From assembly GCA_973895155.1 (NCBI GenBank), contig OZ316897.1, positions 17,218,058 to 17,282,057 of the forward strand: 64,000 bases of DNA, read 5' to 3'. This DNA comes from Marsupella aquatica. Lineage: Eukaryota; Plantae; Marchantiophyta. This document shows, piece by piece, positions 23,400-61,200 of the stretch (position 1 is the stretch's first letter; every line of letters starts with the position of its first letter). Under the pieces are notes generated by a model that saw only the letters and a list, made by a program, of their open reading frames with translations, was not told the DNA's origin and ran no database searches. Both the position numbers and the translations under genes were made by a program.

Positions 23400-25220
23400 G
23401 GCAAGACAATAATATGCACACCCACAAAGGAGGGAGGGTTATCCTCACGGGAGATTTGGAGGGTTGGGTTTTTGCCTCGCACCCTTTGTGGGGGTTTGGC
23501 CACTCTTGTGGTAGGACCTCTTTGTGGAAGTGGAAGCTCGGATATACACAAACCTCTAACATTGCTGTTCGTATGAACAGAGTATTATCTTCACTTGCCC
23601 AAATACAAGGTAACTTCCTCTTTGTGAGACTACTCTAGATATTAATTATTTTGGTTTACCGAAGCAAATAGATATCTTATATATAAAGCCAGAAGGGAAG
23701 GCCCCACCATAATATATGTGCATAGAAAGGAGTATGTTATGATATGCATGATTGTTAGAATGATGGGGCCCAGGCATGATGGGGTTTTTTTCATTTCATT
23801 AACCTTCAAAGAATGGGAATAGTAAATATCTTTTGTTGACACTTTTATTGTCCTCTCCTCTATTCACGTTCAAACAACGGGTAGTTAGGGCTAATAGATA
23901 TAGACAATAGAAGTAGGTAGGGTTGTGTCTAAACCCACAGTTTGTGGGGGTTTGGACATTTTTGTGGTAGGGTCACTTTTTTGAAGTGGAAGCCCGGATA
24001 TGAACAAACTTTTAACATTACTATTTGTGTGGACAAAGTGTTATCTTCACTTGTGAGTAGGGAGGGGCATGGGGAGTCCTTTTGTGAGACTCCCCGTGCC
24101 CCTCCCTACTCACAAGCATACTCTACATATCAATTTTTTCTGTTACCAGAGCAATTATGGCCTGTGCCTTCACTCCATGGAGTACTTACAAATTCTATGC
24201 TATGGTCACCATTTATCATAATTATAGATGTAGGTAGCCTCAATACCACAGTTTGTTGGGTTTGGTCAACTTTGTGGTAGGACAACTTTTTGGAAGTAGA
24301 AGCTCAGATAGTCACATTGTTACTAGGATCATGGCCTTGGAAGCATAAGATTGACTAGACACGTATGTTTGACATTGCTATGTGATGGACACCGGGGATG
24401 GACACTGATTATCTTCACAAAGGGACTTGTAGGGTAGAGCAATTCGACAGTTTTGGGTGTTTGGCTACTTTTGTGGTAGCATCTGTTTTTGGAAGTAGCT
24501 TGGATACACACAAATTAACCTTTGACATTGCTAGTGACATGGACACTATCTTCACTAGCCAGAATACCCATGCATGTGCACAAGAAGGGTTTCACTTACA
24601 TGACATGGACACAAGATTATCTTCACTAGCCAGACCCATGCCTGTTCCTACTCACAAGCATAGCCCAGATATCATTTTTTTATGTTAGCATAGCCCAAAT
24701 ACCATTTTCTTTTTAGCATAGCAAATGACTGCCTATGGCTTCACTCTGTGGAGTACTCATGAATGGCAGACTTCAATGTGAATTATGGTATAGATGAAAG
24801 ATTTGCAGGTAGAGTTTTGTCCTGATTTCCTGTCGTGGGAGTGTGGCCACTTTTGTAGGACCTCATTTTGGAAGCAGAACCTTGGATACACAGAAAAGTT
24901 TGCCCTTGCTACTCAGATAGATACAGGATTATCTTCACGAGAGATTTGTGCTGCAGAGTTTTGTCTCAAATGTAAAGTTGTGGGGGTTTGGCCATTTTTG
25001 TGGTAGGACCTCTTTCTATAAGAGAAGATCAGGGATACACAAAATATTTGAAATTTCTACTCTGATGACATAGGATTTGCAGGTTAGAGCTTTGCCTCAA
25101 TGCAAGCGTTTGTGAGGATTGGGCACTTTTTGGTTGAACATATTTTTGGGAAGTGGAAGCTCAAAGATGCACAAACTCTTGACCGGGCTCTTGACATTGC
25201 TATTTGGATGAACATAGACA
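23400..25220 (+). repeat. Degenerate array of ~7 related ~140-bp units with variable linkers
   Basis: Recurrent GGGTTTGGCCAC.TTTGTGGTAGGAC...GGAAGTGGAAGCT..GATACAC...ACATTGCTA...TTATCTTCAC near 23490, 23945, 24255, 24455, 24840, 24980 and 25120. Confidence 0.75.
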
Positions 25221-48039: not shown

Positions 48040-49780
48040 CCAACTTTTTTTTTCTTCTTTTCTGTTTTGGAAAAACTATGCAAGGCCCGTCAAAACCACG
48101 CAAGGAAGCATGCAGAACGCCTACCCAGGAAGGACAACAAAGGGCACAAGCGCTAAAAAGGCCAAAAAGCTGGCAAAACAAACCAATCAACTAGTCAAAT
48201 GATAGGTCATGAAGAGCCACAACAAGGTAGTTGGCTCACAATCCCAAACAGTCTTCAATGGTTATTCTATCTATCTCTACTCTTAGTTGATGAATTTCAA
48301 GAGTTCATCTAATTCTGAGTTTTATCAATATGGGTCAAAATGTTCATCATATCATTCATGGGCATGATTCCTTGGGTCTACATCTACGTACTTTGCTGAC
48401 TGTTTTCAAATAAATCAATTCATTTACGCTCACCCTTAGCCCAAAGAGACATTGTGTTTTGTCCTACTCTTCTCTTGAAGGTGAGTTCTCTTCCACTCCA
48501 TTCCAATCTTCTATCCACCATTTTCAACATCAATTAATGTTGAGCGCAATGGTACTTTCAAGACCCTTCCTAGGATTGAGCACCTCTAAGAGCTCACCAA
48601 TGGGCATATTGAAGTTGTTTAGCCTTCTTGTCAAAGTGGCAAATATCAAACATAGATCTCAGGTGCATTTCCATTGTAAGACAACCCATCCAGGTAATCT
48701 CCCAATGAAGCAAGTAGCGGCATTCAGCTTGTTCCAAATGCCAGTGCATATCTCCATCAGCAACACAACAAGACCAAGTGTCCACTTTTGCCTATGAACG
48801 GCAAAAGTTATTGCTTCATACAACAACTTTGTGGAATCTTAAGCAAATCCGATCATTGCACCAATCCTTGTACTTCATTCCATCTTTCAGTGATCCTTGT
48901 GTGGTTGAAGAACAAGTGCTCAATGTCCTCAAACCGCTACCACACAGACCGTTGCAAACTCCCCAATGGCTCACCTTGCTGTTCGTTAAGAAACCATGAT
49001 TTAGCAACGCCCACATGAAAACCTCAACTTGGGGAAGGACCATCCACCCCAATTTAACCCACTTTTGTTTCCAGCTTGTGAGATGAATCACTTGTCCCAA
49101 TTGTTGGTGCAACTTGGTAACATTAATTGTGGTTGGCTCGGTGCCGGCTTGGTGTTTTTAACTAGGCCACAATCTATTGGAGAAAGTCTAGCCACGGTTC
49201 CTTGCTACCCTTTTGATCCCATTGCCAACCCTTGCAATCATAAAGCTCTGTAGCAATGTGGCTAGTTGTCTATCTTAGTTTGTGGTAGAAAGTAGTGAAC
49301 TTGGTCTATCCAACCATTATGGTGCTCCTAATCTGTGGACTGATCTTGCTATTAGGAATTATACAATCACCCTGCAACAACCTAAGGTCAGACAAGTGCC
49401 TAATCTTCCTACTGGCCTGAATCTCCTTAACTCCACCCCTCATTGTTCTGTCACGTAATTATTGCAGAGATGCAGCAAAATGATTTGCTCAATGGAAATT
49501 TTGGTAGAAAGCATACCATTGCCAAAGTTGAATTTGAGGTGTTCAAACCAGCCTCCCAACAATACTTTCACTATATAGGGGAACTTTTGACTGCCAGTTA
49601 CTCAGTATGCACTTGAGCTAAACCTTGGCCAATTGACATAAGCAAGTTGCTTTTCTTAAGGCCTATTGTTTGGAAGGAAGCCTCTAGAAGACCGAGACTC
49701 TCAAGGACTAACTGAAAATGGGAGTGCCAATGAAAACCATGGATTCAGGGTATATATGGTGAGCCTTTGAAAGTAGCCAC
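48040..49780 (-). mobile_element. Degenerate 5'-truncated L1-type LINE fragment (post-RT and zf-RVT region)
   Basis: Minus-strand fragments KLGWMVLPQVEVFMWALLNHGFLTNSKVSHWGVCNGLC and LHWEITW resemble the zf-RVT region, with many stops and frameshifts. The T-rich run at ~48044-48068 would be the 3' poly(A) tail. Confidence 0.65.
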
Positions 49781-51199
49781 TAGAAATGAATTGTTGAATC
49801 AATGAACGGGCAATGGCCTTGAATGTACTCATCTCTATTTACATTCAAAGAATCTTCAAACTTTATTATAGCAATAAAAGGATACTTGTTAAGGCCTCTT
49901 GTATTTATGTTTCTTCTTTTTAAGAAGGGAAATCTATGAAACCCCAAAGAAAGGAAACTGTTAGTCACAACATTTGAACTTTAGACCGATGAATCTTGAC
50001 TCAAGTGAGCTACCACACAACAATGCCTCTCTGGGCTAAGGGCATCTTGTAATGAGTAAAGGAACTCCTGTGTAGAGTGAAAACTCTAGACCGTGACTTT
50101 GGGGGCAAAATTGAAATTGGGGGTGCATCAAAAACAAGGATTGGGGGCAGGGTGAGTCTCTCAAATTGGCCAATTGAAAACTGAACCAATGAATGGGCAA
50201 TGGGCTTGAATTTACTCACCTCAATTTACTTTCAAAGAATTGAACCAGCATTCACACTAGTGTGTACTAGGGTAGTTACCAATGCACGGCTTGGAAGGGT
50301 TTACCTATCTAACTATACAATCATGATTAAAAACTACTCTTTAGGGCCTACTGTCCAAAGTTAATCTTCTAGACGCAAGTCTAAAGACATGGGGAGTTTG
50401 GGTATAGGGAGTCCTGCATGTGCATAAGCATGGATATTCAGACTAGTGGGTTGTAATCCCCAAGGCTGGTGAGCTCGAGGGGGTTATAGCCATGGGTTAG
50501 CTAGCAAGCATAACCCCCAACACTCTTTAAAAAATCATTTGAGAATCAACAACTTTGGGTGAAGAGTATGACACTTGGAATCCACTCTAGCAAAGTTAGC
50601 AAGGGATTAGAGCATCCCCACCAATCACGATGAACTCAACTTGGTGTTGTGGTCAATGGTGTTGTGAGTAGCAGGCCCAATTAGGAGTCCAGACCAGCTC
50701 CTGAATTGTTGCACCCGGGGTTGCACCTAATCAATGGGGTAAGATGTGTTGGTGACAGCTTGCTCTCAGATAGTTCACTTGCAGATGGCAATTGTATGAA
50801 CACTTTCACAATTTACTTCAAACAGGGACTTCCAAGCTTGAAGAAGACATACCTCACCGCACAAGCTTTATCACAGGAAAAAATTGATTCCCCTTCATTG
50901 ATCCAGGCTTTTGTGTGCTGCATGCTAGAAAAGGCTAAACTTGAGATAGTGATCATAATACTTGGACAAATTTTGATCAACAAATATTTGCAATGGAAAT
51001 TCAAGATGACTCCTTTGCAACAATGGAGGAGGAGATTGAAGTTGAAGATGGAAGAAACCCAACAAGAATGGGATGATGACCAAACCCGGTGGGAAAGCAT
51101 GACAGTCACAGGCCCCTTGGCATGGACAAACCAAAACCATGGTGCATCAGGGGAAAAAGAAAGAGATGCATCAAGGCCAGACAAAGGTTACAATATATA

Positions 51200-51851
51200 A
51201 TCAAGATAGAATTGTCAGCAATCAATGCATTCCGAAGAGTTATGTGTATCGACAAGCATTTAAAGAGGTGCTACATTACAAATCAACCACGGTGGCAAAT
51301 CCATGATTGAGTGTGTGCATATGACCTATGTTTCATCTCTAAGTGAGATTCAACAAAGGTACTTGACATGTCCTCCACACAAATGACCAGACCTTTGCAT
51401 ATGCTGGGGCATTGGTGTGTCTTTCCAAGGCTTTGTATACAAGTATGTGAGAAATAGGGAGAGCACAACTGTGAAATCATTGAGACAGTTATGTGTTACT
51501 GATCAAATTATTTTTTAGGAGCATCTTTGACAGCCCACAAAGGAGGATGTGGAGACTCAATTTTGGATCAATGAGAAGCATGGATTCTCTCAGTCTCATT
51601 TTGCTTCACTTGATTGTATGCATTATAAGTGGGAGAAATGCCCAATCGCTTAGCAAGGATTATTCACCAACAAGGACGTGGCCAAACGTATTATGCTCAA
51701 GGCTGTTGCCAACCAATCCATGCATGTGGATCTAGCATGCCCACTTTGGATTGTTCTTGGGGGGGCAAGGGGGGGGGGGCAATGTCATGAATATGCTTGC
51801 TTGGTCTCCATTGATGAACAATCCGCTGCAAAATGCTCATCATGTTCTACG
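51200..51851 (+). pseudogene. PIF/Harbinger (Pong-like, DDE_Tnp_4) transposase pseudogene, interrupted by the tyrosine-recombinase element
   Basis: Translates as KHGFSQSHFASLDCMHYKWEKCPIA*QGLFTNKDVAKRIMLKAVANQS...HAHFG...SPLMN. This matches the family pattern GSIDCMHWxWKNCPxAWxG...IILEAVAxxDLWIWHAFFG...SPL. Possible continuation (DVNGH; IIIHNAMV) at ~56020-56415. Confidence 0.75.
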
Positions 51852-51858
51852 TATAGGG

Positions 51859-52003
51859 TAACGACGATCTGGTCGACCGTTACTGGGGTGTAACGGGGCG
51901 ACCGGGTTCTGACACAGGTGTGATCGGCGGTAGCCGATCACGCCTGGGGAGGAAACCGGGAGGATCGGTACACCCCAGTAATGGACGGCCTGGATCGTCG
52001 TTA
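51859..52003 (+). other. ~145-nt imperfect hairpin at the left end of the element
   Basis: Nested paired blocks TAACGACGATC/GATCGTCGTTA, CCGTTACTGGGGTGTAACG/CGGTACACCCCAGTAATGG, CCGGGTTC/GAAACCGG and CAGGTGTGATCGGC/GCCGATCACGCCTG, around a GGTA loop (51929-51932). Confidence 0.85.
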
Positions 52004-52451
52004 ACGTACGTAATCGCGATCTAGGTTTCAGGTTCACCGGCTCATGAAGGTTAAAACAATTCCAGGTCATTGGATCGAAGAGACGCTGTATCGGGACCGT
52101 CAATTTGATCGTAGCGAAGGTGGGAGGGGGTATTCTGCAAATCGGGTGGGCTGCAGCTATTTCGTCATGACGTTGAACGAGGTAGAGTTGGGAGGCAGCG
52201 AAGCGCTGTGCGATCCGGCGGGGCAAGGCCAAGCTCGGAGACTACAGACTACAGCGATGCGCGATCCGGCGGGGCGAGGCAATGCAATGGCGATGGTGGT
52301 GGTGAAAGCTTGGAGATGGTGGCGGGATGGAGCGCGGCGCGTTTGAGCTGGTTTCAAACCAAACGCGACTGTGTTGCAACCAGGGGGAGCCTTACATTTT
52401 CAGTTCTATTTTGTTTGAATTTTTGCATGCGCCATGCATTGTTTGCAGATC

Positions 52452-54847
52452 ATGGATAGCGGGGTGGAAGCAAATGCAACATTGAAGTGGAGCGTCGTTA
52501 TATCGTTCGATTGCTTGTTGTTGAGTTGTAGTACTTATGCATTGCTACGGATGTTGAGTAGTCAAATGGCTGTAGCGACTAAGCAACTTGTGTCGTTCGG
52601 AGTGATCTGTGAAGTAGCTCGTATGAAGATGGAGGGAGAGTTAAGCGATGAAGTTGTTCCTGGCGATTATTCAGACGCTGAGAGGGAGATGTTTTATATG
52701 GATGATTTGAGTGTTGGTGGGGAGACTTGTGACCTTTCAGAGTTTGATTCGGCCACTGCATTTGACGAGGCATCTATAGAAGCTGTTTCTTTGGATGTTT
52801 TGTCTACTTTGGTCGAGCCTGATCGAGAGCTTGTCAATGAGGTTGAAAGTGGGCTGCAGGTTATTGAGCAGAACCATTTGGATCAAGCGGCTGCAAGTTC
52901 GTCCACCTTGAGGCAAGATCTAGACGTGGAAGTAAGCCTGCCAGGCTTGAGACTCCTGCCTGATCCTGCTTTAGAGGAAGCAGGCCGAGGACTGGAGAAG
53001 TTGTCGTCCGAACGGAATGATCAATGGGCTGTTAGGAGGGCAGACGGGTTGCGGAAGGGGATGGGGTGGGACTTGAGTATTGCATTTGGAGACTTGTCAC
53101 TTGTGCAGGTGGACGAGTTGCTCAGCAACTATTTTGCTCGAGCAGTGAAGAAAGACGGTAATGTTTACCCATCATCTTCACTCATGAACCAAATGAATAG
53201 CTTCAATCGAGTGTTGAGGCGAGGGAGTGATCTGAGATCGCTGAAGGGCTCTTCTTACATTATGCCGAGAGATTTCAACATCAACTCACATCCGGCTTTC
53301 TCAAGAACTCGAATGGTGCTGAAAGCTGCCATCAAGAAGTCTCCAAGGGAGGGGGCTAACAAGAAACGAAAGAAGGTGAGAGTTGTCAGCTTGCATTGCC
53401 TTTAAAGATGTCGTGTGCTTGTAGATCTATTCTGCTGCTTCTGACTTTTGGATGTTTAACTGATCCAGGTTGAGATATTGACAGAGGAGCACGAGAAATC
53501 TATTATGGCTGACATTGACCACCAAGTGACAAGCAGCCATGGATGTCAAAAGCGCTTGGCATTTTACTGTTTGGTCAGGTTTGGCATCCGTGGAGGTGGC
53601 GAGCTCTATGACCTCCATAGAGGCGACTTATCTGTATGCATTGACAAGGCAGGAAGAAGCTATGTGCAGTAAGTGTTTTCTGTTCAGGTGATATTTATGT
53701 TTATGAGATGTAACTTTGTTGTATCTGTTTCTTGTGTGCCAGTGATACTAATAAACATTTGAATTTGTTCAGGTTCGAGGAGCGCCAAAGTAAGAATAAC
53801 TCTTACACGCTCGATCGATACAACGAAGAGCAGTTTAGAAAGATGTATCATAGTTACGAAGTTGATTTTGTGCTGACTATTAATCAGTACAAACGCCATT
53901 TATCTCCAGAAGCAGAGTCGTCAAAGCCTGACCTCTTTATGCAGGCGATTACCAATCCTGCCGGGAATGTTTGGTATAACAAAGTCCACAAGGTAGGGAG
54001 AGATACTGCTGCTCATTGGCTTAAGAATATGTTGGCGCTGGTGGGGCTGCCCCCTAATCTTTTTTCCAACCGAACTGGAAGGACCACACTAATCTCTCGA
54101 CTAGCTGCAAAAGGAGTCCCTGATGTGGTTGGTATGCTGATTAGTGGGCATCATTCAACCAGAGGTTATTCTCATTACGACAGAACTCAAGAACTTAAGA
54201 TGGAGGCTGCAGCCCTGGTCTCTGCTAGTCCAGGCCTTGATTATGAGAAGGCTCTTGGACATGTTTCGAAGTCTTTTGTCCAGGAGAAGCTTGTTGGATC
54301 ATCCGAGGGTCTGAAACCCCTTGTTGACAGGGTGAACGAAAAGGCTAATGTGCAGCCTTCACTCATGACACTTGTACAGGTATGTTCATGAACTTTGATT
54401 TGTTTGTGAGTGAGTTTCTTGGTATTGTTTCTAATGGAAATTTCGTTGGTTGGCAGGGATGTACCGGTTTGAGTGGAGTACTAGGAGAAACATCAGCAAG
54501 AGCTTCACAACAGGTTTGTTTCTACCTGTTTCAACTTTCGGTTGCTGCCTGTCTAGCAAGACTGAGATTAATGTTTGTTTTGTGTGTGGCAGGAAGGAAG
54601 CCACGTTGTTGGGGATATGTTATTACAAAGAACAGATGCTGCCAGATGGGATTCGTCCTATGACATAATTGATTGGGTGGGCGAGTTGTTGAAGCAGAAC
54701 CCTTTGCTTCACGAGAGAATTTCAGGCCCACCACTAGCCAGAGTTTCTGTGGGTAGCAACATCTCTGGAAACTCCTTCCACAATTGTTCAGTATCAATTA
54801 AAATTGTCAAGGCAAGGGAGGATGAGAAGGAGGACGCAGGCCCGTGA
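52452..54847 (+). CDS. Tyrosine recombinase, DUF3504/Crypton type, 5 exons, reading frame intact
   Basis: Exons: (start uncertain, 52452 or 52623)-53375, 53469-53668, 53773-54379, 54457-54513 and 54593-54847, with four short GT-AG introns in consistent phase. Motifs: YFARAVKKDGNVYPSSSL (core-binding), FGIRGGGEL (catalytic R), ERQSKN (K), SNRTGRTT (HxxR position), ISGHHS (H), GYSHY (nucleophile Y), and C-terminal FHNCSVSI as in animal DUF3504/Crypton proteins. Confidence 0.85.
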
Positions 54848-55204
54848 TATTTTAGTTAGTGATATTTTACTTAGTTTTCAGATATTTCAGTAAAGTAGCA
54901 TTAGCAGGAAATAACAGTAAGTAGAAACATTGTACATATAAGGAATTTACTGATATGGCTGTATCGGCTGAATCAACACACCTATGTACAGCAAGAATGG
55001 TTTTACTATTCGATTAAACTTTGCATGACTCCCTTGAATAAAGTGGAATTTTTTAGTACTTTACTTCTTCCAAATCACTATTTGGGTTCAATGCTAAAAG
55101 TGAATAAAAGTTTTACGACTGTGAACTCAGCATACACAAAGCTGAAACATCAAATCATACCCTATTCTGAAACCCCTTGTTGACACAAGCCTATTCCGGA
55201 CCTA

Positions 55205-55395
55205 TTGAAGGATGGAATATGCCAATTGAATGTACACGTATGGACCCACGTATGGATGGAAAATGTGTTTTGGATGGAATATGTTTAAGGTGGATGAAAT
55301 ACTAATTTTCCATCCGGTAGTTATGGGTTCTGTAGCTGCATTACGGGATTCCGTAGCCAGGTTACAGAGTTCTGTAGCCCATGTTACAGAGTTCC
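55205..55395 (+). repeat. Subterminal arrays: GGATG(G)AA motif x4, then 3-4 ~21-bp palindromic units
   Basis: GGATG(G)AA at ~55210, 55254, 55272 and 55292, with an inverted copy at ~55308. Units: GTTATGGGTTCTGTAGC, ATTACGGGATTCCGTAGC, GTTACAGAGTTCTGTAGC, GTTACAGAGTTCC. Confidence 0.75.
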
Positions 55396-58027
55396 AAAAC
55401 GTCAGATGTGTCAAGAAGGCAGATTACGAGAATACAAGGGACCCCCAAAATAGGGTTACACGCAGGTAACCTGAAACCAAGACCGCGATTACGAGCCCTA
55501 TGCTAGTGCTTTGCACTGTGCAAGGAGGGCCAGGGCATTTATGGGGCAAATCAAGAGCAAATGCGTGCGTCAGTGCAGTAGGCCAAAGTCAAGTGGAGAC
55601 ATGGAGTGGAGGGCGAGGCTGGACTTGCTTGGCTGCTTTCTGCTTTCTGCTTTCATACATTGGGAGTCATCGTTGTTGGGACGGAGGCATCGGTGGGAGG
55701 CTGGGAGCATTCACAAGGGAGGGAGATGGATAAGGTAGAGGGGGGAGGCATAATGAATGCACGGAGTGGAGGTTTCGACATGGGGCCAGTATTGAAGATT
55801 GTATTGTCAGGCATGGGAGCCCTAGACAGAGACAGAGAGGATGGGCCGATGCGAGGTGATTGAAGACGGTATTGTCGGGCATGGGAGCCCTGGCACGTGA
55901 ATCGGATGGACACGCAAAATCTGATGCCTGTATCTAATGGTCAATTTTGATTTCCGCCGAAATTGAAATTTGTAACGGGACGAAGGACGAAATTGGCAGC
56001 ATTGCCTATTACAGTGTTAGATGTCAATGGACATTCGTAAAGGGCTAGGTTTTATTTTCTTTCCATCAACTCACCACAACACTTCCCACATAAGATTTGC
56101 CCAGGAAAAATGGCTGTCCCGTGGTTGTGTATTGGTACAATGGTGTGTCTTATCTTACGTCCACCTTCGTAGGAAGAAATTTTAAGTAGCACTCCCCTCT
56201 CTTGCACTCGCACAAACCAGTGCCCTCATAGGGAACAACCAGTTCACAAGTAATGAGTCTGGTTGACTTATCAGGTGGGGATGGAAAGCAAAGTCTATCT
56301 ATATTATGTTTAGTACTATCCTATTAATAGGGCATTGTGGAATGCATACTGCCATGATGACGGATGGCCTTAGCTTGAGTTTTGACGAGCTATTATTATC
56401 CATAATGCTATGGTAACAAAGTTAATACACTTAATGGTCTAAGAGAATTTAGTGCTTACTAGTCAGTAAAAGCGAGAGAAGATTTCATAGTTAGTTATCC
56501 AAATCTTGAATGTGCATTTTTCTCCACAAATGTACTGAAAATTACAAAGAGAAAAATCACCATAGCCTTTGAGTATTGTAAACAGGCCACACTTGACTCA
56601 ACCAGCAATTCGTTGAGTTCAAAATTTGTCAAAATCCACCCTGTTGAGAAAGGTTTGCCACAAAGCATAGCAAGAGCTTTCAAATCTCATTAGCCAGTCT
56701 CCATCCAAGGCACAGGGCCCATTGGCAACCATGTAGCTGCTCTCCTGAAGTCTAGGGAGATCTAACACTGTAAAACAAATCTAGGGAAATGTTAATAGAG
56801 AATATTTCTAGCAATTTTGGGGCCTCAAGAATGTGAGCCTTTATACAAATGGAAGATACTATTTAAGTTCAAAGTAATGTTTACAAATGGTCCATACAAG
56901 TTTTTGTCAAATATTGTGGTTCAGCCATTTGCCAGCCTAAGTGAATTAAATAACCCTAAGAAAAGTATTGGAACTCCACCTCATCCAGAAAGCTTTGCAA
57001 GGGGCAAGTCTCCCACCAAATCTGAGGGCTCTCTCAAATCATGGCAGACCGAATGGTCAAAATAAGTCTATAAAATTTCAAAGGGTGGTGTCAAACCTCA
57101 GATTAAATTGGACCTTGATTACAGTAAGTAGTTAAGGTTTGGGACAGAAAATTTATGTACTACCTATTCAATTCACGATCCATAACTTTTTGCAATATAC
57201 AGGCTAGTGAAAATGAAATGAAATTTTCACATAACCCTTTGAAAAAGGTGTAGCCACCATCGGTAAGTATGAAGCTTTTAAACGCAAGATTCCAAACATC
57301 CAGTAGTCTCCAGACTGTGGTAGTGTACACGTTACAGTCTACGTAGTACTACTACAGTAGTCTGTCTCAGCGCTCACCGCTTACTCACCTCACCACGCCT
57401 GACTCCCTGACTGACCTGTCTGTCTGCCTGTCCGCCTGCCGCCCAGCGTCGTGACTCCTCGTTCGCTCGTTCGAATTGGAATCGAACGAGATCCGATCGT
57501 TGACAGAACGAACAATAATAACGCCTCCACCTCGATAAACGTACGGCACTTTCGCCTCGCCACCAGATTTGCGCGGCCTTCGCCATCTCCGCCGTCCACC
57601 GTATTCCAATCCAGCGGTCCCGAGAACGCCACCACGCCCCCGTTCCGAGGTTCCGAAACACAGCAACACAGCATGCAGGCCTGCAGTAGTAGTAGTGGAA
57701 CGGGGGGACTACGACCGTCGACGGGAGCCGCCGGTCTCGAGCGAGCGCGCCGCGAAAGGAAGAGGAGAGCGGAAAGAAGGGGTGCTCATTCGGAGAGCGC
57801 GGACGGAGGATTTCGAAGATCGACGGGGGAGGTGTGAGTCGAGCGAGAAAGAAGAAGGCGAGGAAGGGGAAAGAGAGGAAGGGGGGTGACGGGGTGATCG
57901 ACTACGGTAGAGAGGTGAATGGAGGGGAGAGGAGGGGAGAGGAGAGTGCGAGAGAGAGTATGTCGACGAGGAAGAGGAGGAGGCGGACTGTACAGTAGTA
58001 GTAGTAGGAGGGACGGACGGGCGGGAG

Positions 58028-58200
58028 CAAGGAAGGGAAGGAAGGAAGGGAAGGGAAGGGAAGGGAAGGAAGGGAAGGGAAGGGAAGGGAAGGGAAGGGA
58101 AGGGGACGGGACCAGGTTTGGTTTGGTTTGGGCGGGGCGGGCGAGGGGGCTAGCTAGGGCTTGTGGGCAAGGGAAGGGAAGGGAAGGGGGGGGGAGGGGG
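58028..58200 (+). repeat. (GGAAG)n purine microsatellite in the 5' leader of the bromodomain gene
   Basis: Long runs of GGGAA/GGAA. Confidence 0.9.
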
Positions 58201-58298
58201 CTGGACTGGGCTGGGCTGGGGAGGCAGGGTGAATGGGTGCGAGGAAGAGGGAGGGAAGGGGTGAGGGGGCTAAAGAAGGAGGAGGGGGGGGATGGGCC

Positions 58299-61200
58299 AT
58301 GGCGGACAAGGACAAGAAGAAACTGAAGGTCATTCTCAAGCTTCCTCCGAAGTCTTCGTCGTCGGCCCAACAGAAATCATCTGCAGCAGGAGGAGGAGGA
58401 GCAGGAGCAACAGCAGCATCGGGAGGAGGAGCGAAGGGTGGTGGTAATGCTTCATCGGTAGGAGGAGGGGGTTTCACTTTTTCGGGGTCGGCAATAGGAG
58501 CGTCGCAGCAATTTGGTGTGGGATTACAAGATCAGCAAAAGCGGCAGCAGCAGCAGCAACAACACCGGAGTGGCAGTACTGGGAGCAGCAGAAATGTGCA
58601 ATCGGGTCAAGCAGCAGGTCGGCATGGGGTGGTGCTTCTCCCGGGGGCTACTGCTGGAGCAGCAGGAGCAGCGGCATCGTTGGGACATACACTGTTTCAC
58701 ACTCCTGGGTCTTTTAGCTCTGTGCGATCTAGTAGTAATTCATCGGCTGCGGGCCCTTTTTCTTCTTCTGCAGCAGCACCGGGAGCAGGAGGAGGAGGGG
58801 GAGGATCGGCATCCGCTCTTCACCATTTGTCACCTCCTGGCTCCTTAAGTCAGGCTCCAACTCCTCTTAAGAAGAGAAAGTTTAAGGCTGTGGAGCACGC
58901 TGGAACCTTTGGTGTTGGAGCGCTAGTAGTAGGACGATCTACAAGTTCTGGTACTGCTGTTGCCTCGGACGGACCGGGATCTGGTAGGGATGCGGGAGGA
59001 GGAGCAGGAGGAATAACGAGAGTTGGTGGTGGAGGAGGCGGAGGAGGAGCAGAACCTGGAACGGGTGGAGCGGGAGGAGGAAAGAGAGCACATGGGGGAG
59101 GAAGAGATGGAGGAGGAAAAGATGGAGGAGGAAGAGAAGGAGGTATGGGAGCAACAGGAGGGAAAACGGGTTTGCCGCCAACCCCGAGTGCTCCGTTTCC
59201 TCTTAAGAAGTCGCACAAGGTGTGTTTACCTTCTTCAATGGTAGAACATCCTTGATTCGCTTCCTCGATTGAAGTTGCTATGTAGATGTCCTTCTTGAGC
59301 GTTTCTGCGGTGAGTGCTCATAACGTGTCTATGCTCTCTCCAAACTAGAGTTTTCATGGGAACGGTGTGAAACAGACAGCCTGGGTGGAGGCAGCATGAA
59401 CTGGAAGTTGGACAAGTTGCTGGGAGAACGAGGTTTGCTTTTGTTGGAGTCCGGCGGGTCACTTTCATCTCGTACTACACTCAACTGCACGAAAGATGGA
59501 AACCCTAAGTTTCGGCAACAATTTTCCTGCGTCGTGTGTATGGAAGCTACAGGAGGAACGGATTAGACCAGTACTGGTCGAGTTCAATTTGGTGCCGTTG
59601 CACTCCTTGTACAACTTCTCTAGGGTATCGTCCATTTCTGTTGGCGTTCGCCCGTTCTGATCCGGTGACTTGTGGTTCTTCCTATATCGCAGAAGCAAGT
59701 TAAACCGTCCACTCGAACCGATGGACCTCAAGCACACAATCCTTTCGCCGGTAAGTGTGGCTCAGGATCATTGACTTTTCTAAGAAGTTGCGATTATTTT
59801 CTTTTCCTTCGACGACGCCCTTGTCGTTATAGCTAGCTTATGGCACGGTGATTTTAAGCGGTGCATTTGTTGCGTCATTTTGTCCCTGCAGGAGTTATTA
59901 TGCCAGAAAAAACTCCATCAGAACCGCTCTCGAAGATGATGTTGGAAGGTGTCCTGGAGAAATTACAAAAGTAAGGACAGTTGAAAACACTTTTTCTATT
60001 ACCTTTCGGTGGAGCTTACCGCTTTTGTTAATTGGACTATGATCTTGCGACGGCTCGAACATTTCAGTTCCTTTGTTTAAGTGTGTCGTTGTTATAAAAG
60101 TATTTGTGTCCAAGACTTTCGTCATTAGATTTGAGACGTTTGTCTAGGTGGAGATCGCACTGTATCTGTGCTCTCGAATCATCCAGTAACATTTTACCAC
60201 CTGGTGTTTTCAGGAAAGATACATATGCAGTTTTTGCTGAGCCGGTAGATGCAACTCAGGTAAGCTAATCTCCTTACTCTGTACTCGGTTGTGGAATAAC
60301 CGTCCTAGTGAATTCTTAGGCCATGTATTTGCATATCTCTATACATATAAATTGGGTATTGTAAAACCTCGTAGTTGTTTATATCATATATGGGAGTGGT
60401 TTCTTAGAGTGGGTGTTTACCTTGGCAGGTGCCTGATTACTACGAAATCATTAAAGAGCCCATGGATTTCGGCACTATGAGGAAGAAGATAAAGAAAGGC
60501 TCGTATAAATCAGTCGAAGAATTTGAGGTTTGTTGCCTGCCTGTTTGTTTTACACTCTTCTCGGTGGCTTCTAAGTTATGCTGAAGTCTCGAAAGAAAGT
60601 TGGGATGAGCCTTCGCTTACTAGCTAGCAATGGTCGGAGCATGCTCTTTTCTTTTTTCTTTTAGTGTTTTGGGGTTTCGATGTCTGTTCCTCTAGCTGGA
60701 AGCTTCTTTCTTTTTGTATAAGATTGTCGGATTTACTGAGTGGCGGTTATTTTGGCTAATGTTCAGGGAGATATATACTTAATTTGCAGCAATGCCATGC
60801 GTTACAATGGGCCAGAGACTATATACTACAAACAGGTAAAGAATCGTCCATCCAAGAGATTGCGAGATTACTTCGTTTACCTGGGTATGTGAAATGCTAG
60901 ACGAAATTTGTTTTGCAGATGTGCAACACTTTTGCGTTGAAGCCTGCATATTTTAGGATTGTAGGATAATGGAAAGTCCGACTCCTCTAAATATCTATGG
61001 AGAGTTTGAAACGCTGCCCATGTTCATATATTAAGCTACTGAACTATCTGAATTAGGGATGGAAACGATTGAGTGGGTGTTCAGTCTCTCCCGTTCATCT
61101 AGGCAAAGAAGCACCATCCTAGTCAAATTATTTGATCATGCATTTCATGAGCAGTATACCACTGTGTACACCTTACCGGGTTCTCACTTCTTCAATTTGC

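Follow-up and report, generated by a model that had tools for sequence, protein, structure and literature searches.

To our knowledge, the mechanism by which Cryptons move has never been shown, and we know of no eukaryotic tyrosine recombinase that has been shown to use folded single-stranded DNA. In the available text of the published descriptions, Cryptons lack terminal inverted repeats and carry only 4-6-bp direct repeats at their ends (PMC3212892; PMC13465315), and the sole 'plant' in the species key of the former is Chlamydomonas. The only direct observations that we found concern active Chlamydomonas Cryptons, which excise yet gain copy number; as given in the accessible part of the preprint on them (10.1101/2022.05.23.493040), these observations fit site-specific recombination at a 5-bp core, and the rise in copy number despite excision is left unexplained. 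The strings 'hairpin' and 'palindrom' are absent both from this preprint and from the Glomhopper paper (PMC13465315), as are 'palindrom' and 'stem-loop' from PMC3212892. Our literature search, which covered openly available main texts, found no published description of hairpin-type Crypton ends, and a folded single-strand way of moving has likely not been described in print for these elements.

Several other mobile systems provide points of comparison. Integron attC sites are imperfect palindromes of about 57-141 nt with boxes RYYYAAC ... GTTRRRY. Their unpaired or mismatched bases could set the choice of strand; with the crossover placed close to the stem foot, integration splits the palindrome between the ends, and elements can stack head to tail. 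For the CTX phage, Val et al. are said to have shown in 2005 that attP(+) is recombined by XerCD as folded single-stranded DNA; the inverted halves of the site pair on the circular single strand into a duplex recombination site, and replication resolves the junction. DIRS retroelements combine a reverse transcriptase and inverted terminal repeats with RNA-based replication. In the available text on DIRS elements, which also encode a tyrosine recombinase, an internal complementary region matches the joined termini (PMC13465315), and attC sites are thought to fold on one strand with structure kept more than sequence (PMC2727003, PMC6393395). Two further groups, again as far as the accessible text goes, move through single strands: the strand-biased circularizing integrative elements of Vibrio (SEs; PMC9345347), which set a precedent for a single-strand copy-out route, and IS200/IS605, IS91 and Helitron2 (PMC3627910), which carry subterminal hairpins kept by compensatory mutations and asymmetric inverted repeats near their ends.

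The locus studied here lies in 64 kb of DNA from the land plant Marsupella aquatica (the window), where an element of about 3.6 kb appears to span 51848-55493, with TACG at both ends. Contigs from four public runs (X1-X4; two organism labels) were aligned on the region, and depth together with loose contig ends defined the repeat boundaries, the left end being placed by depth and the flanks of other copies, and the right end at 55493 by the stop of an inverted repeat and the start of the neighbouring repeat. Depth is single-copy up to 51839 and jumps between 51840 and 51859 (from 18 to 129 in X1, 70 to 426 in X3 and 97 to 604 in X4), with the repeat-family depth rising at 51847-51850. Loose contig ends with unlike flanks fall before 51847, 51848 and 51849, which together with the window's own flank gives at least four different left flanks. 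This depth jump and the loose ends at 51847-51850 place the left end at TACG 51848-51851 (+ strand), a terminal short repeat and the predicted crossover core, which reads TACGTA with 51852-51853 and has the same TACG as its counterpart at the right end. As judged from the contigs of the public runs, the element family is multi-copy and diverged over its entire length.

On the right, the terminal arm of an inverted pair (55468-55493, + strand) ends in TACG 55490-55493, and a different repeat, at around a hundred times single-copy depth, starts at 55490-55494. Other copies of this high-copy repeat have heterogeneous AT-rich left flanks and begin (T)ACGAGCCC, and we infer that a resident element's terminal TACG served as the insertion site of the present element. 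The short direct repeat TACG stands at both inferred termini without a target-site duplication, as expected of a Crypton, and we found no long direct repeats at the element ends. Within the 64 kb there is no second copy of the gene or of the right-hand repeat. The two ends are not inverted copies of each other; instead, the right terminal 26 nt recur inverted at 52009-52034, 161 nt inside the left end. We also observed that an ATAGGG motif, which near the left end includes TAGGG 51854-51858, recurs at 55451-55456, before a small stem (GGTTAC / GTAACC with a 6-nt loop; 55454-55471, + strand) that can be read from the sequence just inside the right end.

A single gene nearly fills the element. 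Open exons, GT..AG borders and protein alignment mark a tyrosine recombinase gene with introns at 52623-54847 (+ strand), for which the splice models give open exons bounded by GT..AG at 52623-53375, 53469-53668 and 53773-54379, a stop codon at 54845-54847 and a possible upstream exon near 52313. Models of 569-649 aa reach the stop at 54847, with 200 open models possible for the 3' exons, and almost all of these models align as a single segment to residues 136-709 of an 'unnamed protein product' (711 aa) from the liverwort Calypogeia fissa, at about 51% identity over about 575 residues. The copy in the window is apparently intact. Pfam assigned no family to the window's own exons and ORFs or to the Calypogeia fissa protein, for which phmmer returned 561 relatives, the named ones coming from a fern and a lycophyte. 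Among 27 long relatives, 11 carry DUF3504 above the Pfam cut-off, most of these with Phage_integrase and QRICH1 as well, and 12 have no family. We attribute the lack of a DUF3504 match in the window's protein to its divergence, as it appears only distantly related to the animal DUF3504 group. Scans of metagenomes with the family alignment and protein P0152 gave no relative, nor did a scan of viral contigs.

The AlphaFold model of the Calypogeia fissa protein has a core at residues 211-570 with pLDDT mostly 70-90, and its best structural matches are Cre-loxP complexes (E 1.2e-6, TM 0.59 by target), with human QRICH1 also matching, while a PDB sequence search with the family profile returned only a chance match (E 1). 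The window's protein has, in order, the motifs FGIRGGGEL (R), ERQSKNN (K), NRTGRTT (R) and GHHSTRGYSHY (H in GHH, Y in GYSHY), all conserved in the family alignment; the putative catalytic residues R/K/R/H/Y were placed by motif order, not by superposition on Cre, and NRTGRTT gives N-x-x-x-R where H-x-x-R is expected. Among the ORFs of at least 80 aa in 49000-60000, Pfam found no reverse transcriptase or DDE transposase in the three scanned, nor the RT/RNase H domain that characterizes DIRS elements. We therefore regard the gene as encoding a Crypton-type tyrosine recombinase with a predicted Cre fold, related to DUF3504/QRICH1 proteins, and the Crypton context proposed in the earlier note is supported by the DUF3504, QRICH1 and Phage_integrase relatives, the Cre-like predicted fold and the TACG at both inferred ends. 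The element thus shares with Cryptons of the DUF3504/CryptonA-like type (Kojima and Jurka 2011, PMC3212892; PMC13465315; in the text available to us) a single intron-containing tyrosine-recombinase gene, the lack of a reverse transcriptase, TACG direct repeats and multiple copies. It differs in its host, a land plant, and in its ends, where a terminal hairpin of 145 nt is accompanied by an internal mirror of the joined termini, neither of which appears in the accessible descriptions (PMC3212892; PMC13465315), in agreement with the earlier note's remark that such a hairpin is not a standard Crypton feature.

The hairpin is a conserved left-terminal structure of this Crypton-type transposon, upstream of the recombinase gene and in the same sense. 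Fold prediction gives a single long hairpin of 145 nt at 51859-52003 (+ strand), with a 5' arm at 51859-51928, a GGTA loop at 51929-51932 closed by C-G, and a 3' arm at 51933-52003 that repeats the left terminus of the element as its reverse complement. The earlier note had it begin 7 bp inside the left end, which holds if counted from TACG 51848-51851, 7 nt before the hairpin; the element start at 51848 puts the hairpin 11 nt in, a distance that is constant in the family given its shared left end. As RNA, the + strand reaches a minimum free energy (MFE) of -104.9 kcal/mol (z -14.6), which none of 200 shuffles equalled, compared with -81.2 kcal/mol for the - strand (z -11.4); with DNA parameters the + strand likewise folds better than the - strand (-57.7, z -12.4, versus -44.3, z -9.4). 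Folding of both strands, the check proposed in the earlier note, thus confirmed the hairpin of about 145 nt with a GGTA tetraloop that it had described and favored the + strand under either set of parameters. In a scan of 150-nt segments (2554 across the 64 kb, DNA parameters), no other segment folds as strongly as the hairpin (-55.6; mean -13.8, sd 4.7), whose strand difference of 14 kcal/mol is by far the largest among the strongest segments listed, the next strongest region, near 24000, being strand-symmetric. There is no second copy of the hairpin in the window.

The mismatches in the stem favor the + strand too. The RNA MFE structure has 59 pairs, made up of 53 Watson-Crick, 6 G.T and 0 A.C, and when the two arms are aligned with each other, there are 54 Watson-Crick columns and a single indel, while the 16 mismatches comprise 5 G.T, 8 G.A, 1 G.G, 1 A.A and 1 T.T. 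All 14 of the strand-asymmetric mismatches (G.T, G.A and G.G) favor the + strand, with no A.C, C.T or C.C; on the - strand the same 14 would read C.A, C.T and C.C. Several of the G.A mismatches are in tandem, such as 51900-01 with 51960-61 and 51911-12 with 51949-50. We take all of the mismatch types present to be among the more stable ones in DNA, and C-GGTA-G presumably fits a stable DNA tetraloop class. The earlier note had counted about four G-T mismatches and no A-C; the lack of A-C stands, but the count and the bias were understated, the actual figures being 5 G.T, 8 G.A and 1 G.G. Neither the G.A mismatches nor the complement of the joined ends described below figured in that note. We dropped strand-biased mutation as a source of the G-rich mismatches because the differences that separate copies along the full element are symmetric between strands (in run X1, C>T 111, G>A 108, C>A 25 and G>T 35). 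A telomere-resolvase-type site was also considered and dropped, the GGTA center not being palindromic in this copy.

These mismatches bear directly on whether the palindrome acts as a duplex, either bound directly by multimers of the recombinase or, on a supercoiled circle, extruding a cruciform whose four-way junction the enzyme would resolve, and in both cases without a single-stranded intermediate. We consider this unlikely, although there are grounds for it: both strands of the hairpin fold far better than shuffles, including the - strand (z -9.4 to -11.4), which makes a cruciform or duplex site possible, and tyrosine recombinases normally use duplex inverted arms around a 6-8 bp spacer (PMC3212892, in the text available to us). 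However, neither a duplex nor a cruciform site explains why all 14 asymmetric mismatches favor a single strand; such mismatched 'pairs' do not exist in duplex DNA, and their types should drift freely.

Conservation could be followed in one diverged copy across the loop, carried by an X1 contig of 680 nt (depth 57.9) that spans 51864-52015 with 29 differences (81% identity). This copy was phased by depth, using single-contig rows, exact sums (79.9 = 57.9 + 22.0; 75.3 = 57.9 + 17.4) and exclusion; 5 of the 29 differences lie outside the rows listed, and 21 secure substitutions were scored. At 51894/51967, 51918/51943, 51924/51937 and 51885/51976 both partners have changed and Watson-Crick pairing is maintained, with 51888/51973 as a probable further case; two G.T become G-C, two pairs are gained and two new G.T pairs arise. 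Purine-purine mismatches in this copy number four to five, with a new tandem G.A among them, and no mismatch contains C. When the 21 secure substitutions were dealt to random positions with the same base, 0.49 compensations were expected against 4 observed (permutation, P 0.00045), 4.8 C-containing mismatches against 0 (P 0.00055) and 43.7 paired positions against 49 of 54 (P 0.0022). A duplex site offers no reason for a diverged copy to avoid C-containing mismatches, and together the 14:0 asymmetry and this 81%-identical copy support the earlier note's view that the + strand folds, rather than serving as a symmetric duplex site for a protein.

Other contigs add single cases. A second contig (X4, depth 89.5) changes T-A to C-G at 51921/51940, and in one X2 contig, with a loose end behind 51913, the GGTA loop is kept on an apex stem of another sequence, which also contains G.T and G.A. 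In X3, eight contigs have G>A at 51885 with no C>T listed at 51976, a case in which the assignment to an arm is ambiguous. Short palindromic contigs can align on either arm, so that single-arm variants are unscorable and may hide A.C mismatches; counts of such variants as a test of G.T versus A.C were dropped for this reason. The arms of a palindrome can also co-evolve through gene conversion without selection.

The same contigs are relevant to the prospect that the structure is a neutral foldback without function, left by a single inverted duplication of the left end or by a palindromic MITE inserted beside the terminus. Some contigs share only the hairpin or one of its arms before running into unlike sequence (loose ends behind 51913, 51918, 52015, 52028 and 52042), and the 5' arm has about twice the depth of the 3' arm, although this difference can come from short palindromic contigs placed on either arm. 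We nevertheless find a functionless foldback very improbable, since 51859-52003 is not framed by a target-site duplication (it has TAGGG to its left and ACG to its right), the left end of the family coincides with the hairpin across copies with different flanks, and the compensatory changes and strand bias argue for constraint. The adjacent 28 nt, moreover, complement the other end of the element, unlike what an independent insertion would leave.

This complement is the second unusual feature of the element. The 26 nt at 55468-55493, ending in TACG, are the reverse complement of 52009-52034 (2 pattern matches in the window versus 0.00 expected). Because TACGTA is self-complementary, the right and left ends, once joined, would pair with 52007-52034 over 28 positions, so that this stretch (+ strand) reads as the predicted circle junction in inverted form: TACGTA together with 22 nt, pairing with the right end 55468-55493 and then the TA of the left end. 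Of these 28 positions, 26 are Watson-Crick, with one A.A and one C.A. Taken as a whole, 51933-52034, comprising the 3' arm and the next 28 nt, mirrors the left and right ends as joined. In the joined-end fold, TAGGG (51854-51858, + strand) forms the unpaired 5' side of an internal loop between the TACGTA foot and the hairpin, with ACG (52004-52006, + strand) on the opposite side.

Joining the ends adds 25-29 pairs below the hairpin, and a 263-nt construct has an RNA MFE of -160.5. The 222-nt joined region again folds better on the + strand (-153.3 as RNA and -88.1 as DNA) than on the - strand (-132.0 and -73.8). A circle junction would thus lengthen the hairpin to about 215 nt. The junction complement is also an inverted repeat at the duplex level, which a duplex or cruciform site can claim in its favor together with the single C.A mismatch of the outer 28-bp foot (55483/52019), which runs counter to the pattern of no C in the mismatches.

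We propose that the hairpin acts in cis as a recombination site, its + strand functioning as folded single-stranded DNA in the manner of attC or CTX attP, and put the probability of this reading at roughly 0.5. The earlier note had left three options for the hairpin, an RNA cofactor, a folded single-stranded DNA substrate or a source of siRNAs, and the single-stranded substrate fits best because the joined ends have their reverse complement just 3' of the hairpin, an arrangement that makes sense at the level of DNA. The class of the enzyme, a tyrosine recombinase with a predicted Cre fold, counts for a recombination site as well.

For the two RNA options, read-through, or transcription that crosses a circle or tandem junction, would produce a + strand transcript serving either as a structured element RNA or as a precursor diced into siRNAs that silence the family. 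Plant inverted repeats often give rise to small RNAs, the predicted RNA structure has a very high stability, RNA accommodates G.U wobbles and tandem G.A, and the hairpin has the same sense as the recombinase gene. We still judge an RNA role to be distinctly improbable. With only 11 nt of the element upstream of the hairpin, there would seem to be no room for an internal promoter of a + strand transcript in the integrated state, and a hairpin of -105 kcal/mol in a 5' leader would block scanning. We know of no RNA cofactor for tyrosine recombinases of this class, and the sole Rfam match of the hairpin region is a miRNA model, MIR1883, on the - strand and far below threshold (27 bits versus a gathering score of 128). 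Complementarity to the junction is a feature of DNA, and a hairpin that silenced its own family would not be kept by compensatory change.

Under the folded single-strand proposal, the element would be excised, or copied out, as a circle or a single strand, and the joined-end + strand would fold into the hairpin of about 215 nt, whose 28-bp foot would hold the TACG core as a duplex. The recombinase would then bind the folded site, as IntI does the bottom strand of attC or XerCD the folded attP of CTX phage; a target TACG would be the partner in strand exchange, and replication would finish the process. The strand in use would be marked by its G.A, G.T and G.G mismatches, which only the + strand tolerates. 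Excision with rising copy number, as in the Chlamydomonas Cryptons, leaves room for such a replicative route.

Each of the systems set out above matches part of this scheme. The hairpin is an imperfect palindrome of a size similar to attC, its mismatches could likewise set the choice of strand, and its predicted crossover also lies near the base of the stem, but IntI belongs to another branch of recombinases and is bacterial, whereas the Crypton-type enzyme here has eukaryotic relatives and is encoded by the element itself, and the folding here is predicted. An attC site in the strict sense is ruled out: the stem ends, GGGTAAC ... GTTAACG, agree with the attC boxes only in AAC and GTTAA, so that the R''/L'' and L'/R' consensus is not matched, and the partner is not IntI. 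The hairpin may therefore work like attC at most and is not a member of that family. For CTX attP(+), the phage genome is naturally single-stranded and the enzymes are those of the host, whereas the Crypton circle or single strand is a putative intermediate. The internal complementary region of DIRS elements finds its parallel in 51933-52034; in contrast to DIRS, no reverse transcriptase was found here, and the complement lies beside the left end, where it forms a hairpin. The Vibrio SEs differ in being bacterial and having four genes, with no long terminal hairpin described in the accessible text (PMC9345347), and IS200/IS605, IS91 and Helitron2 rely on HUH nucleases, in contrast to the Cre-type tyrosine recombinase here (PMC3627910, in the part available to us).

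A broader proposal, which we advance tentatively and hold at somewhat less than even odds, is that Cryptons of land plants and animals share a single-stranded-circle route, in which the joined ends would pair with an internal mirror beside a hairpin marked by G.A and G.T, forming the site on one folded strand. This would be the eukaryotic counterpart of attC and CTX attP and a likely ancestor of the internal complementary region of DIRS elements, and elements landing in each other's terminal TACG would build up cassette-like stacks.

The strand-marked terminal hairpin and the mirror of the joined ends together offer a concrete and testable model of Crypton movement with defined biochemical substrates. 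If the model is true, recombination of folded strands by tyrosine recombinases is not confined to bacteria, and Cryptons would be tied to the end design of the DIRS retroelements. In the accessible text of the 2026 Glomhopper paper (PMC13465315), Crypton ends are called hard to define, and the hairpin with its junction mirror gives annotators a way to locate them. The element also places apparently intact Crypton-type transposons in land plants of bryophyte grade, where related proteins have been filed only as unnamed or hypothetical.

Comparison of the window with contigs from four public runs carrying two organism labels (X1 to X4) revealed contigs that differ from it at both ends of the Crypton-type element. 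One contig in X1 and X2 carries two tandem copies of the right-end unit, separated by 17 other letters (aligned at window 55464-55491), and this double reading indicates that the right end is duplicated in some copies. At the left end, X3 and X4 each contain a single contig with a 71-nt gap (at window 51933-52005) that corresponds precisely to the hairpin's 3' arm, the short side of these contigs being just 36 letters. These two contigs could represent a copy with half a hairpin, or could be an artefact of mapping across a palindrome.

Several smaller repeats lie in and around the element. Outside the element, 70-95 nt from its left end, are two long runs of 7 and 11 G (51752-51780). The stretch separating the hairpin from the start of the recombinase gene holds two GC-rich direct repeats of 33 nt each (52202-52234 and 52253-52285; 85% alike), and the region that they span, 52202-52285, is a possible promoter region. 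A perfect 20-nt direct repeat is shared by exon 3 of the recombinase gene (54310-54329) and the element's non-coding tail (55166-55185). The tail is dense in short repeats at 55200-55400, with at least four occurrences of GGATGGAA-like words, three to four of TTCYGTAGC and two of GTTACAGAGTTC; these short repeats are possible accessory binding sites.

Elsewhere in the window, we found a large nested inverted repeat at 1852-2844, with arms of 262 nt (91% identity) and 68 nt (93%). It is unrelated to the Crypton hairpin and is probably another foldback-type element. At 23460-25180, four to five diverged direct repeats recur every ~300-580 nt; this cluster holds the second strongest folds in the fold scan of the 64-kb window, and these folds are strand-symmetric. 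An open frame of 340 aa at 58233-59255, rich in Gly, Ala and Ser, lies in GGA/GCA-rich DNA whose GC skew is strongly positive; the frame gave no match in the Pfam scan.

Directly at the right TACG of the Crypton begins a very high-copy repeat, which starts with (T)ACGAGCCC and occupies window 55490-55800 and beyond. Contig depth in the bin 55388-55531 was ~100 times that of single-copy sequence in all four runs. The other copies of this repeat have AT-rich, heterogeneous left flanks, and their consensus is ~16 letters longer than the window after 55531. If these extra letters are included, the repeat could form a hairpin of ~50 nt at its start (CCCTATG ... CATAGGG). The high-copy repeat may be a gene-less relative with the same TACG core, stacked head to tail with the Crypton.
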